The notes under the pieces: model-generated
The model's database searches: none
What the model was told of the DNA's origin: nothing
The model's input: the letters and a program-made list of their open reading frames with translations, nothing else
Translations under genes and position numbers: made by a program
In this document: in pieces, positions 9,024-30,163 of the stretch
Layout: each line of letters begins with the position of its first letter
Position numbering within the stretch: the first letter of the stretch is position 1
Source of the DNA: a virus
Taxonomy: Duplodnaviria > Caudoviricetes
Length of the DNA stretch: 64,000 bases
Virus record (IMG/VR): IMGVR_UViG_3300033066_002255
Reading direction: 5' to 3' (one strand)

Positions 9024-9328
9024 TATAACATTGAAATTATGTCTTCTTTTGTTTTTACTCCCACAAATTTTTCTGATAATTCTCCTGCTTTAAATATAAA
9101 AACAGCAGGAATACTTCTAATTCCAAATTCGCTAGATAAATCATTGTTTTCGTCAACATTAACCTTTATGACATTAACTTCTGGATTTTCAGTTGCTACT
9201 TTATCTAAAATTGGTCCCAGGGTCTTGCAAGGACCACACCATTCAGCGTAGAAATCTACAATTGTTGTTTTTCCTTCTTCGATTAAGCTTTTTACATTTT
9301 CGCTTGTACCTTGTATTACATTTTCCAT
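9023..9328 (-). CDS. trxA: Thioredoxin
   Basis: DFYAEWCGPCK active site and cis-Pro SIP. Confidence 0.95.
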   Translation of the reverse strand: MENVIQGTSENVKSLIEEGKTTIVDFYAEWCGPCKTLGPILDKVATENPEVNVIKVNVDENNDLSSEFGIRSIPAVFIFKAGELSEKFVGVKTKEDIISML

Positions 9329-9377
9329 GTTTTTTGTTTTTTGTTGTTATTTATTATTGATTCTGTTTTTTAGTAAT

Positions 9378-9409
9378 AAAAAATACTCATTAAAAAGCAG
9401 AAAATCAAA
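9378..9409 (-). promoter_or_regulatory. Imperfect Bacteroidota primary-sigma promoter for the trx/glycan operon
   Basis: Minus strand TTTG-N20-TATTTTTT; one mismatch to TAnnTTTG. Confidence 0.35.
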
Positions 9410-9418
9410 TTTTTTGAA

Positions 9419-9425
9419 TATTTAT
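9419..9425 (+). promoter_or_regulatory. Putative late promoter element TATTTAT
   Basis: Recurrent motif, here 20 nt before ATG 9446. Confidence 0.55.
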
Positions 9426-9445
9426 TTAAAAATCATACACTAATT

Positions 9446-9820
9446 ATGTCAAACAAGAAAATTATTAGCCCAAGTACAATCAAACAAGCTATTGTTGAAG
9501 AGGCTCTTAGAATCAAAAGAAAAAAAGAACTTTACGAGTCAGTAAAGCAAATCAATTCAGAGTTGAAGCAACTAAACGAAGTTGGGATGGTTGGAAGTTT
9601 TGGATTCGCAAATCCAAGTGATAATATCAACAAATCTAAAACTGGTTTTGTTAATGATTTTCAACACATTTCTCATGTAGCTGAATTAGCTGCTGAATTT
9701 GCAGCAGTAGACAATTCTTCATCTATAAACGAAGATGCTTTAAATGAAGTAGATAAGTTAAAAGAAGAAATAAAAAAGCTTCAAGAAGAAAATGAAGCAT
9801 TGAAAAATTCAAAAAAATAA
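9446..9820 (+). CDS. Hypothetical head-associated coiled-coil protein
   Basis: N-terminal IKQAIVEEA motif; LYE/LNE/INE sites. Confidence 0.6.
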   Translation: MSNKKIISPSTIKQAIVEEALRIKRKKELYESVKQINSELKQLNEVGMVGSFGFANPSDNINKSKTGFVNDFQHISHVAELAAEFAAVDNSSSINEDALNEVDKLKEEIKKLQEENEALKNSKK

Positions 9821-27301: not shown

Positions 27302-28471
27302 ATGGGAAGTTTTTGCGCTAATGGCTGTTTAACTGGAATGACTACTTCGGAGCAAGTAGCACTTTACAAGAGAATAAGATATTTTCTTGGTGAGCCTGTT
27401 ATGGGAGTAGAGCTTGTAGATGAACAAATAGAAACTGCTATTTGTATTGCAATAGAAGAATACTCAAGTTATATAAACAACTGGGTAATGCAAAATAGAT
27501 TAGGAGAGATGTTAGGTCTTCCCTCTGAAATTGATTTTACATTAAAATATGTTTCTAATAGTCTTTATTTTGAAAAATCTTATGCTACATCATTTGGTGA
27601 ACAAGTAGGATTAGGAGCTAATAGTATTAGAGAAATTAAAACAGGAAGAATTACTCTTAGCGCTGGTACACAAGATTATTATTTGCCTGCTGGAATAGAA
27701 GTTGATAGTGTACTTTGGTTTACACCAAGTTTTATTAATTTATTTGGTTTAGACCCTTTTTCAAATTCAAATATTGCATTTACAGAATTTGGAGCTTCAT
27801 TTGCAGGTCATACATTATATCATGTAATGCCTGTGTTTGATACTATTTTAACAGCTCAAGCTGCTGAATTACGTAACAGAGTAAGAGGTTCAGAATATTC
27901 TTATATTTTAAGAGGTGGTCCAAATGGACAAAGACTTTTAAAATTATTTCCTGTGCCACAACCTGGAAACTCAACTGCTTCAGCTGGAGGTACAGGAACT
28001 CCTGGAACTTTATTTTATACTTATTATGATACTGTAAGTTTATATAGTGGAAATACTGCAAACCCAGGATTTACAGGATATACACAAGCACAAATTGATG
28101 CTGGATTTCAGGGTAACGGATTGGTATCTTCTCCTGCTGATGTTCAATTAAATTTTATTAGTTATAATCAATTAAATGATACTGCCAAAAGATGGGTTAA
28201 AAGATATGCCCTTGCATTATGTAAGGAAATATTAGGTCTTGGGGTTAGAGGTAAATTTAATGGACAATTGCCTATACCTGGAGCTGATTTAACTTTAAAT
28301 AAAGACGATTTAATTAATACAGGTAGAGAAGACCAAGAAAAATTAATGACTGAATTAAAAGAGCAACTTGCTGAATTATCTTATGATAAGATAATGGAAA
28401 AAAGAGCTGCTGTACAAGAAGCTATTAATAAAAATCTTGGATATGGTCCTTCGGGAATTTATGTTTTTTAA
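27302..28471 (+). CDS. Neck / head-tail adaptor (T4 gp13-like)
   Basis: LG.PV..VEL.DEQI N-terminus; WVKRYALALCKEILG..RGKF..LP.PG..LTLN. Confidence 0.85.
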   Translation: MGSFCANGCLTGMTTSEQVALYKRIRYFLGEPVMGVELVDEQIETAICIAIEEYSSYINNWVMQNRLGEMLGLPSEIDFTLKYVSNSLYFEKSYATSFGEQVGLGANSIREIKTGRITLSAGTQDYYLPAGIEVDSVLWFTPSFINLFGLDPFSNSNIAFTEFGASFAGHTLYHVMPVFDTILTAQAAELRNRVRGSEYSYILRGGPNGQRLLKLFPVPQPGNSTASAGGTGTPGTLFYTYYDTVSLYSGNTANPGFTGYTQAQIDAGFQGNGLVSSPADVQLNFISYNQLNDTAKRWVKRYALALCKEILGLGVRGKFNGQLPIPGADLTLNKDDLINTGREDQEKLMTELKEQLAELSYDKIMEKRAAVQEAINKNLGYGPSGIYVF

Positions 28472-28489: not shown

Positions 28490-29056
28490 ATGTCTGACTT
28501 TAACGAAATAGGATTAAATCCTGAAAATATGGATGCTGCTGAGGCAAAGCCAAAAGGTATTGAATTGTTTTTCGGTTCAAAAGAAAGAGCTTTTTTTACA
28601 AATGCAGGAAGAGAAATTACTGAAGGTATATTAAAAGAGAGTTTTTTACTTTATAGAATTGACCTTGAAAAGACACAAACAGATTTTTATGGTCAAGCTA
28701 AGAAAAAAGTTTGGCTTCCTGAAATAGAAATTTTTGGTAGAATTAATGTAGAAGTTCAAGACCCAAAATATGTTACTAAAGGAGCAATAGAAAAGAAAGG
28801 TATGGGTAATATTACTGCTCATATTTATTTAGACCAATTGGAAGAGCTTGGTTTAATTACAAAACAACAAAACACTAATGTTATTGTAAGTGGAATTAAG
28901 ATGGGCCATTTCATTGCTTATAAAGGACAATTTTATAAGATTATTGATGATGGATATTCTCAAATATCTAATGAGTTTTCATGGGGTGGAGATAGAAGAT
29001 TCTTTATTACAATCAAAGGTGTTGAGGTTGATGAAGATATATTCCAAGGCCGTTAA
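28490..29056 (+). CDS. Head closure / neck protein (gp14-like)
   Basis: Follows the gp13-like gene; LYRIDL..T..DFYG pattern. Confidence 0.6.
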   Translation: MSDFNEIGLNPENMDAAEAKPKGIELFFGSKERAFFTNAGREITEGILKESFLLYRIDLEKTQTDFYGQAKKKVWLPEIEIFGRINVEVQDPKYVTKGAIEKKGMGNITAHIYLDQLEELGLITKQQNTNVIVSGIKMGHFIAYKGQFYKIIDDGYSQISNEFSWGGDRRFFITIKGVEVDEDIFQGR

Positions 29057-29136
29057 GATGTAAGTTAAGGGTTTTATACCTATTTGGCGTTACTCTCTTA
29101 TAATTAAAAGATTACTTTATATTAAAATATATTGTT

Positions 29137-29377
29137 ACCAGCTTTTAGTAAAAAACGTCAAAAACCAACGCCCCCTCTCATCCCCCAATTTCGAAAAATT
29201 GCTCCTAAAAGCCTAAAATAAGGCGTAGGAAGTACAGGCCGAACATATCAGCTATACTGGACGAGAGTGGGCCTTTTGACGTTTTTATACTGGCTTGTGA
29301 GGTACCATCCCCCAGGGTAAAAACTCCTACATGTGAGACCAACGCCCCGAAGAAAACACAATGTAGGTTAAAAAATC
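29137..29377 (-). ncRNA. Candidate structured ncRNA (or cis element) of unknown family
   Basis: GC-rich ORF-free island with a 13-bp perfect inverted repeat, several hairpins (one with a UUCG loop on the minus strand), direct repeats and a promoter immediately upstream. Confidence 0.55.
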
Positions 29378-29381
29378 ATTT

Positions 29382-29413
29382 CAAATATAGACAATAAAAA
29401 ACTTGAATCCAAA
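29382..29413 (-). promoter_or_regulatory. Bacteroidota primary-sigma promoter pointing into the non-coding island
   Basis: Minus strand TTTG-N20-TATATTTG. Confidence 0.72.
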
Positions 29414-29443
29414 TTTTTTTTAAAACTATTTATTAATAAATAT

Positions 29444-30163
29444 ATGTCCATATTAGATAACATAGGAAAAAACTTGGATTCAGACTTTGAAAACCATGCT
29501 TTTTTACCACAAAAATTAGAGATTGTAGATTTGGACAAAGGGGTTTTTGAATTCATTAAAAACCTTAATATTACTGTTACAGATGAAACAGGAAATTCAA
29601 GAGTAGTTCCAATCATATTTAATACTCATGAGCTTTGGGCTGAGAGAAGAATGAATTGGAAAAGTATGCGTAGTGAATATGGGGAAGAAATTACAAGACC
29701 CTTTATGGTTTTGACAAGAACAGCTGTAAAGCAAGGTACTTCTCCTCTTAAAAGAACTGTACCAGTTAAGAAAAAATTTACATGGCTTAAAGTACCTACA
29801 TTTGATGGGACTTTAAAAGGTTATGTTCTTTATAAGATTCCTCAGCCAACATATATTGATTTACATTATGAATTAGTTTTTGTAAGTACTTATGTTGATG
29901 ATGTAAACAAATATTATACTAAAGTTTTAAGAGATGGATATTCAGATTTGCAAGGATATATGAATATAAATGGTTATCATGTTTCTTCAAGAATAGAAGA
30001 CCCAAGTGAAACGAGAGAAGAAGATTTGGCTAGTGAAAAGGTTTATGAAACAACTTTTCCAATAATAGTCTTTGGAAAATTAGTTGACCCAACACAATTT
30101 GAGAGAGTAAATACAATTAATAAAATACAAATAAAAATTTCAGAGAAAAAATCTGATAAATAA
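29444..30163 (+). CDS. Tail terminator / sheath stabiliser (gp15-like)
   Basis: VPIIF...E.W, P...L.R and IPQPTYIDLHYEL patterns; lies between neck and sheath. Confidence 0.65.
   Translation: MSILDNIGKNLDSDFENHAFLPQKLEIVDLDKGVFEFIKNLNITVTDETGNSRVVPIIFNTHELWAERRMNWKSMRSEYGEEITRPFMVLTRTAVKQGTSPLKRTVPVKKKFTWLKVPTFDGTLKGYVLYKIPQPTYIDLHYELVFVSTYVDDVNKYYTKVLRDGYSDLQGYMNINGYHVSSRIEDPSETREEDLASEKVYETTFPIIVFGKLVDPTQFERVNTINKIQIKISEKKSDK

Follow-up and report, generated by a model that had tools for sequence, protein, structure and literature searches.

To our knowledge, few structured phage RNAs are known, and most of them, such as GOLLD and ROOL, have no assigned function. Among primer-forming RNAs, the mitochondrial LSP/CSBII primer transcript is grouped with ColE1 RNA II in the same comparison. 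Masukata and Tomizawa are said to have found in 1990 that a G-rich loop of RNA II pairs with a C-run of the template. RNA II itself is a pre-primer that forms a hybrid with the DNA and serves as a substrate of RNase H processing (PMC6380287). In this work we describe an element at positions 29137–29413, minus strand, of a 64,000-nucleotide (nt) stretch of phage DNA (IMG/VR record IMGVR_UViG_3300033066_002255; Duplodnaviria, Caudoviricetes), which is referred to as the window. The element had been singled out in a sequence-only reading of the window as a promoter-driven, GC-rich, structured non-coding element antisense to the neck genes. It is a member of a genuine family of structured phage RNAs that had not been described before; in this family the promoter is conserved, the stems covary, part of the RNA is duplicated internally, and a fold with two states is predicted.

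The comparison with the described systems shows both likenesses and differences. Similar to GOLLD and ROOL, the element is phage-borne, non-coding and GC-rich relative to its genome, and has a fold of several helices which is supported by covariation. It has no sequence or structure match to them, is far smaller (about 170–290 nt) and does not lie beside tRNA genes; the internal duplication, the predicted two-state fold and the fixed position between neck and tail genes distinguish it further. With ColE1 RNA II it shares the features of a host-polymerase transcript with stem-loops, alternative pairings, a G-rich loop with a downstream G-run, and a U/AT-rich stretch that follows. Unlike RNA II, it is 250 nt rather than 550 nt in length and holds its G-runs in a conserved helix; no sequence similarity, no equivalent of RNA I and no positional evidence for an origin were found here. 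The presence of a strand able to pair with either of two alike strands, and of exclusive helices predicted to form in the order of their synthesis, resembles attenuators and riboswitch platforms. In contrast to those, the element has its own promoter, no same-strand downstream gene and a variable apical domain, that is, no conserved aptamer. The locus is also similar to morons and anti-defence loci, being a promoter–gene–terminator unit among late structural genes in a slot whose cargo varies between relatives. Here, however, the cargo is RNA, and the family is kept where the tail-terminator proteins are only about 50% identical. It does not look like a type III antitoxin of the ToxI kind, as its repeats are not tandem and no toxin gene follows on the same strand. 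An inverted repeat as in the msr–msd of retrons is present, yet no reverse transcriptase adjoins the element at any of the 21 loci of the context-free scan described below.

Results

Promoter, composition and coding potential

The promoter of the element reads TTTGGATTCAAGTTTTTTATTGTCTATATTTG at 29413–29382 on the minus strand. It is an exact match to the Bacteroidota sigma-A style pattern, with TTTG at −33, a 20-nt spacer and TATATTTG at −7, and it is present exactly where the sequence-only reading had placed it, pointing into the element. The pattern TTTG-N20-TATATTTG occurs 13 times in the window, compared with 5.2 ± 2.1 times in shuffled sequences. A TTG-N17-22-TAnnTTTG box is kept 33–36 nt before the first G-run in about 25 of the 31 family members. 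The fold and its z-score suggest a transcript of about 250–260 nt, spanning 29377–29118 on the minus strand. Its 5′ end would lie a few bases past the −7 box and its 3′ end at or just beyond an AT-rich palindrome at 29118–29133. This palindrome, a putative terminator, probably terminates both the RNA and the converging neck operon. An AT-rich palindrome is found at most about 30 nt 3′ of the last conserved motif (M2b, see below) in most of the family members, and a terminator scan at the element detected no canonical GC-rich terminator.

The GC content is 0.43–0.51 at 29150–29349 and about 0.27–0.33 on both sides, which bears out the claim that it lies well above that of the flanks. The GC skew of the plus strand at 29100–29199 is −0.52, and the RNA is strongly G-rich. 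The minimum free energy of the minus strand is −91.2 kcal/mol (z −4.7) and that of the plus strand −70.9 kcal/mol (z −5.0). None of 100 shuffled sequences folds as well in either case, and the minus strand is better folded than the plus strand by 20 kcal/mol. The element had been described as free of open reading frames (ORFs). This is not strictly the case, because two TTG-start ORFs of 45 and 37 amino acids (aa) are located within it on the minus strand, but neither of them is conserved. In the relatives, ORFs occur in differing frames and positions, or are missing altogether (L015, L016 and L044). Since the ORFs are not kept, the element is not conserved as a coding sequence. The ORF list contains neither a conserved minus-strand ORF downstream of the element nor a toxin gene nearby.

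Homologues in related phages

IMG/VR was searched with the protein encoded directly downstream, a gp15-like tail terminator, and then with the alignment of this protein, which led to 92 loci (designated by L numbers). Where the identity of this protein exceeds about 52%, most of the relatives show a gap of 290–590 nt at the same place, and about 35 distinct IMG/VR contigs carry a homologue of the RNA, termed type A, in this gap. A scan of metagenomes with a 23.5-base motif, made without regard to context, yielded 21 loci. All 21 lie between a gp15-like gene and a gene at the position of gp14. In total, about 55 homologues were collected.

Secondary structure and covariation

In the order of synthesis, and with all positions on the minus strand, the RNA begins with the hairpin P1 (29326–29367), formed by the arms 29357–29367 and 29326–29335 around a loop of about 21 nt. 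The apical loop contains M1a, the first copy of a G-run motif (GGGGCGUUGGU, 29338–29348). P1 is followed by the linker J (GUUUUUACCCUGG, 29312–29325) and by M2a, (G)GAUGGUACC at 29300–29311, which carries the first copy of a UGGUA motif. The central strand X (CCAGUAUAAAAACGUCAAAA, 29274–29293) is able to pair either with J, giving a local hairpin whose helix is capped by M2a as a small hairpin or loop, or with the 3′ segment J′/M2b, giving the long-range stems P2 and P3. The 5′ arm of P4 (GGCCCACUCUCGUCC, 29259–29273) covaries with the linker that separates the two G-runs of the 3′ arm (GGGGGAUGAGAGGGGGC, 29170–29186). Between both arms lies an apical domain of three hairpins (29187–29258), including CAAUUU-UUCG-AAAUUG, the length and sequence of which differ among the subgroups, as do those of the tip of the long hairpin. 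The second G-run copy, M1b (GGGGCGUUGGU, 29164–29174), is located at the junction of P4 and P3. The 3′ arm of P3 (UUUUGACGUUUUU, 29151–29163) leads into the U-rich J′, and M2b (GCUGGUAAC, 29134–29142) carries the second UGGUA copy. P2 is formed by CUGG of M2b and CCAG of X (29290–29293), and P3 contains a perfect 13-nt inverted repeat, 29151–29163 with 29274–29286. This repeat had been noticed in the sequence-only reading and is present as described; the 5′ hairpin and the inner hairpins that had been proposed along with it all appear in the minimum-free-energy fold.

The sequence of the P1 stem differs among the lineages while its pairing is kept, and over the whole family each of the 8 outer pairs shows changes in both partners. 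The loop of P1 (about 22 nt, consisting of a U-run, GGGGGCGUUG and UUUC) is the best-conserved sequence of the family. In a model-fitted alignment, the covariation score of P1 is 0.734, compared with at most 0.263 in slid controls. None of 500 shuffles reaches this score, and 122 cells are changed on both sides. P1 and P4 were also assessed together in a MAFFT alignment of 26 sequences, which had been fitted to no structure, with the partners slid by 1–3 columns as controls. Here, 77.8% of the cells are paired and the covariation score reaches 0.464, the controls giving 0.225 at most, again with none of 500 shuffles reaching it. RNAalifold recovers both P1 and P4 independently in the subgroup of the window. 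In P4 a C/U-rich strand is paired with two G-runs, and the linker and its partner covary (AUAAUA/UAUUAU, ACUAUA/UAUAGU, AUGAGA/UCUCGU). The entire P4 helix of L024 is of a different sequence. P4 contains 59 G·U cells and 20 A·C cells; this excess favours the minus strand as the one that pairs, in line with the direction of the promoter. The A/U-rich long-range stems P2 and P3 were misaligned by MAFFT and were therefore tested without an alignment. The duplex of the strand following M2a with the 3′ segment of its own genome has a mean energy of −17.8 kcal/mol, compared with −11.4 kcal/mol for the segments of other genomes, and none of 20,000 permutations is as low. P1 and the long-range stems P2, P3 and P4 thus keep their pairing through compensatory changes. 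The conservation with covariation in relatives that the sequence-only reading had named as a check was thereby found, and its proposal of a structured, promoter-driven non-coding RNA on the minus strand is supported by the promoter, the fold, the lack of conserved ORFs and the G·U bias.

Internal duplication and a predicted three-strand switch

Two direct repeats had been reported for the element, and both are present: ACCAACGCCCC at 29164 and 29338, and CATCCCCCA at 29179 and 29306. The spacing is 174 nt for the G-run motif and 127 nt for the other. The repeats can now be described as parts of an internal duplication, in which the half H1 (M1a–J–M2a) is homologous to the half H2 (M1b–J′–M2b). 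M2a contains AUGGUA and M2b CUGGUA, and J and J′ are both U-rich linkers. The two copies change together between genomes. In L024, GAGGGCGUUAG is present in both copies; in L033, GGGGGUCU(G/C)GAU and CGCAAGU are found in both copies, in L026 UGGAAGA, and in L052 UGCAA. For M1 and for M2, the similarity of the copies within a genome is higher than between genomes, and none of 20,000 permutations matches it for either motif. A shared base composition may raise this similarity slightly; the specific matches exceed what composition gives.

Both halves are complementary to X, which would explain why they stay alike. M2b pairs with CCAGA of X in all low-GC members, where the changes in X are transitions that preserve G·U or Watson–Crick pairs, and J′ together with the region following M1b pairs with the remaining part of X. 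The J–M2a segment forms a duplex with X of its own genome with a mean energy of −10.9 kcal/mol, compared with −8.9 kcal/mol for other genomes; 9 of 20,000 permutations are as low. Transcripts that were cut at 110–130 nt fold into the J:X hairpin with the M2a cap in five lineages, and the isolated J–M2a–X module forms this hairpin in 24 of the 26 members. The pairs of J:X are of differing sequence (UUUUGC/GCAAAA, UUUUAC/GUGAAA, GAGUUUUUUA/UAAAAAACUC and CUGC/GCAG); in the window, J:X corresponds to the inverted repeat 29312–29324/29281–29293. As J:X overlaps the X arm of P3, the pairings J:X and X:J′ exclude each other. The RNA of this family is therefore predicted to be a three-strand switch with two mutually exclusive folds.

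Novelty and distribution of the family

A covariance model, R1, was built on the 5′ module, which consists of P1 with its G-run loop, J and the M2a hairpin. The members score from 21.8 to 91.7 bits, at least 34 bits except for the most divergent ones, and there is exactly one copy per locus. The window, which is part of the training set, scores 62.3 bits (E 6.7e-12). Members outside of the training set reach 80.4 bits (L114), 77.7 bits (L122), 44 bits (L050) and 26.6 bits (L014 and L002). All members of the family have a double G-run with a U-run after it. In the window and five contigs of 65–153 kb, the 8-mer GGGGCGTT is essentially confined to this RNA, and its distribution in these sequences reveals no genome-wide target or regulatory motif.

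A match to an Rfam family would have removed the novelty of the element. The search of the whole window with Rfam 15 gave no hits at the gathering thresholds. Its 4227 models include 6S, Y RNA/YrlA, transfer-messenger RNA (tmRNA), RNase P, SRP, group I and II introns, small ribozymes, CRISPR repeats, GOLLD, ROOL and HEARO. When E values up to 10 were allowed for 28950–29550, MIR812 was the sole match; with 22.5 bits against a threshold of 80 it is due to chance. Nothing was found in ten related loci at E values up to 1, and ARAGORN detected no tRNA or tmRNA in the window or these ten loci. Using R1, no homologue was identified in a sample of 151 Bacteroidota genomes or in five others. All 80 bacterial loci that were tested among the motif matches listed are chance matches under R1, with E values above 0.1. 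The bacterial genomes searched are samples, and a homologue is therefore to be regarded as not found rather than absent. The 1.8-kb region gave no BLASTN match in 50,697 phage records, TBLASTN with the gp15-like protein gave none in the phage database, and a full-text search of the literature retrieved no description of this RNA.

The phage itself is distant from the described ones. Its tail sheath is at most about 32% identical to those of a 484-kb uncultured phage, Microcystis phage Mel-JY01 and Flavobacterium phage immuto, with 80% of the length covered in the case of immuto. The related contigs of 65–153 kb are estimated to be 21–52% complete, and the near-complete and complete relatives have 291–519 kb; the clade, which consists of uncultured phages, is thus one of jumbo phages. 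The promoter type and the nearest isolates suggest that the hosts belong to the phylum Bacteroidota.

Genomic context

The element occupies the gap between two plus-strand genes and is antisense to both. The gene at the position of gp14 (28490–29056) encodes a protein of 188 aa without a family match, and upstream of it lies a gene for an Ad2-like head-tail adaptor (27302–28471), which matches phrog_211. The gene on the other side (29444–30163) encodes the 239-aa gp15-like tail terminator. Its AlphaFold model has a predicted local distance difference test (pLDDT) score of 71.5, and Foldseek matches it to the T4 portal–neck–tail complex (9mkb, E 2.4e-9) and to T4 gp15 (4huh, E 1.6e-7). The assignment of the element to a gp14–gp15 setting was thus right, with the downstream protein having the fold of the T4 tail terminator. 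The tail sheath gene is located downstream of the gp15-like gene.

The motif CTATTTAT at 29426–29433 on the plus strand belongs to the gp15-like gene and not to the RNA. Of its 14 copies in the window, 12 read on the plus strand, most of them 10–60 nt before the ATG of plus-strand structural genes; sites include 12706, 14198, 22543, 26986, 29426, 32960, 44463, 46217, 54366 and 57172. The number of copies is not above chance (14 against 10.3); the orientation and position are consistent. CTATTTAT reads as the T4 late box TATAAATA(G) on the opposite strand and is probably the late promoter or leader motif of this phage. Owing to its position, the late transcript of the gp15-like gene would spare the RNA element.

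Other contents of the slot

The same slot holds two more promoter-driven, GC-rich, non-coding elements in other relatives, designated types B and C. Type B starts with UUGGACGGGAU and type C with AGACGGCUAAAAACACCUG. The loci of types B and C are L006:2537–3000 (also L021, L051, L077 and L079) and L034, L035 and L041–L043 at about 1060–1500. Type B alone gave no Rfam match, and neither did types B and C in the search of ten loci. Both fold only modestly better than shuffled sequences (z −2.1 and −2.3) and lack the G-run duplication, and their homology to type A could not be shown. Distant relatives, with about 50% protein identity, carry no RNA in the slot and instead have a protein gene on either strand (L058:621–1400, minus; L080:604–1428, plus) encoding about 260–275 aa. 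The model of this protein contains two winged-helix domains linked by a long helix (AlphaFold pLDDT 86). Its identification as a replication initiator was considered on the basis of a weak match to phrog_345, "replication initiation O-like" (E 5e-5), and was dropped, the fold search having returned generic MarR/SarS matches only. No iterons flank the gene.

In L002 (2031–2975) and L012 an additional ORF of 314 aa, with no Pfam or PHROG match, separates the type A RNA from the gp15-like gene. The AT-rich 3′ flank of the element contains a 10-nt unit three times in L025 (1114–1148) and a 25-nt unit twice in L052, there within the 67 nt after M2b; repeats also occur in the flanks of L015 and L027. 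Such direct repeats are significant in 4 of 20 relatives. Their sequence is not conserved, and they are absent from the window. With three RNA types, a protein gene or an extra ORF in it, the slot appears as a hotspot in which autonomous cargo is driven by a host-type promoter.

Discussion

We consider it probable, with a fair share of doubt, that the element is a stand-alone small-RNA gene of a new family, the product of which acts as RNA. It would be a moron-like unit with its own host-type promoter and terminator, inserted in antisense orientation between the neck and tail-terminator genes of a large myovirus that probably infects Bacteroidota. Host RNA polymerase would produce a G-rich RNA of about 250 nt. 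The P1 hairpin of this RNA would display GGGGCGUUG (M1a) in its loop, and a second hairpin would arise from the pairing of J with X, with the M2a loop as its cap. The long irregular hairpin P2–P3–P4 with its variable tip would follow, its 3′ strand repeating the motifs as M1b, J′ and M2b. X:J may form first during transcription, and X:J′/M2b may be the more stable end state. The product may act as a regulatory or decoy RNA, with the exposed G-run and U-run motifs as its working surface. The sequence-only reading had put forward a protein decoy or scaffold, besides a primer RNA in an R-loop at an origin, as candidate roles.

Several points weigh against this reading. The transcript ends, the abundance and the stability of the RNA are predictions, and its action in trans is a default assumption. 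The support for the J:X helix is of a thermodynamic and permutation-based kind, and RNAalifold predicts no pairs for the J:X module in the MAFFT alignment, in which the X side is misaligned. The concerted change of the two halves could also stem from gene conversion or a shared external ligand. Furthermore, the presence of unrelated-looking RNAs (types B and C) or of a protein gene in the slot implies that the element is dispensable to the gene order.

A different function, fairly unlikely in our opinion, is that of a replication-origin pre-primer similar to ColE1 RNA II or to the mitochondrial CSBII transcript. The transcript from the host-type promoter would then stay hybridised to its template, and RNase H of the phage would trim it to a primer. 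M1a is identical in sequence to M1b, and M2a to M2b, so that the template DNA further downstream is complementary to the loops of the RNA upstream. Thus the P1 loop and the M2a loop could pair with the template at M1b and M2b and clamp an R-loop, while the state of the X switch would determine whether the RNA stays folded and inactive or enters the hybrid. The upstream G-rich loop matching a downstream C-run of the template, as known from RNA II, is indeed present: M1a in the P1 loop has the sequence of M1b, and the two identical G-run motifs, 174 nt apart, change in concert. The universal double G-run and U-run of the family, which resemble mitochondrial CSBII, the G-richness of the RNA with the plus-strand skew of −0.52, and the AT-rich flank after the element, with direct repeats in four relatives, also speak for a pre-primer. 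However, these repeats are missing from the window itself, M1b has its G-runs tied up in the covarying RNA–RNA helix P4, which competes with an R-loop, types B and C occupy the slot without a G-run duplication, and distant relatives have the gene of the two-winged-helix protein and no RNA there. A promoter for an antisense regulator like RNA I was not found either, as the plus strand shows 4 promoter-like sites against 4.2 expected and no Bacteroidota-type promoter inside the element.

The position lends no clear support to an origin at the element. A GC-skew analysis had been put forward as a check on an origin at the element. In the window, the minimum of the cumulative skew does not coincide with it; it lies at about 9.4 kb, some 20 kb away, and the skew rises smoothly without a change of sign at 29.2 kb. 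The bottom of the curve, 9328–9446, is the divergent gap between a minus-strand glycan operon and the plus-strand structural genes, and is the best positional candidate for an origin within the window. In a complete relative of 518,809 bp (G161, with direct terminal repeats, L256–L281), the global minimum is found at about 329.4–330.8 kb and the maximum at about 145 kb, which makes the former region a candidate origin region. This minimum is only 2.3 kb from the slot, which favours a pre-primer, but it falls exactly at a divergent switch of gene orientation and not at the slot, and in two other complete relatives the minimum, again at a switch of gene orientation, is 18.5 and 22 kb away. Replication of the T4 kind leaves no skew signal in a phage genome.

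It is unlikely that the element acts in cis on transcription, separating the early promoter from the converging neck operon as an insulator or bidirectional terminator. J:X and X:J′ would then be an antiterminator/terminator switch that controls the amount of antisense transcription entering the late neck genes. A strand with two alike and exclusive partners follows the logic of an attenuator, the A-run/U-run helix P3 reads as a hairpin with a U-tract on both strands, the high-GC relatives L026, L033 and L040 have a canonical hairpin with a U-run inside H2, and AT-rich palindromes lie 3′ of the element. Yet no minus-strand gene exists downstream to be regulated, the terminator scan is negative at the element, and in members such as L025 the long helix is not followed by a U-tract. 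A terminator needs neither a covarying P1 with a conserved 22-nt loop nor an apical domain of 70–150 nt, and a near-consensus promoter that runs straight into a terminator has the look of a small-RNA gene. Still less probable is a mimic of a host RNA directed against host defence, such as a decoy of a CRISPR repeat, a type III antitoxin or a tRNA-like RNA. The two copies of the motifs would follow a sequence of the host, and this would account both for their change in concert and for the variability of the cargo in the slot; the placing of such cargo, be it one of the three RNA types or the protein gene, behind an early-type promoter in a structural slot that is itself conserved resembles the anti-defence loci of other phages. 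Against a mimic, the 5′ module has no homologue in the 151 sampled Bacteroidota genomes and five further ones, and the 80 genome loci tested among the motif matches listed are all due to chance. The repeats lie 174 nt apart in different structural contexts and are not in tandem, neither CRISPR repeats nor other Rfam families match, no toxin gene is close by, and the pairing of both copies with X already accounts for their concerted change. We give hardly any credence to a function of the DNA itself, as a protein-binding array, cruciform or recombination site, or to a small protein, in both cases with no RNA involved. The DNA does contain direct and inverted repeats as well as the ORFs of 45 and 37 aa, but the latter are not conserved. 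The three-fold excess of G·U over A·C in P4 is a strand-specific pairing that the symmetry of a DNA duplex does not predict, and the promoter points into the element at a fixed, conserved distance.

As a compact RNA with a clear promoter, a supported fold and a predicted second state, the element is a tractable object for the study of non-coding RNAs in jumbo phages. If it proves to be the pre-primer of an origin, it would explain how the replication of these phages is started and would be the first origin gated by RNA structure to be described in a tailed phage. If it is a decoy or regulator, as the reading of a stand-alone small-RNA gene suggests, a class of RNA effectors new to phages would be gained. 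The slot, a hotspot of variable cargo with three RNA types or the gene of a DNA-binding protein, merits mapping in its own right.

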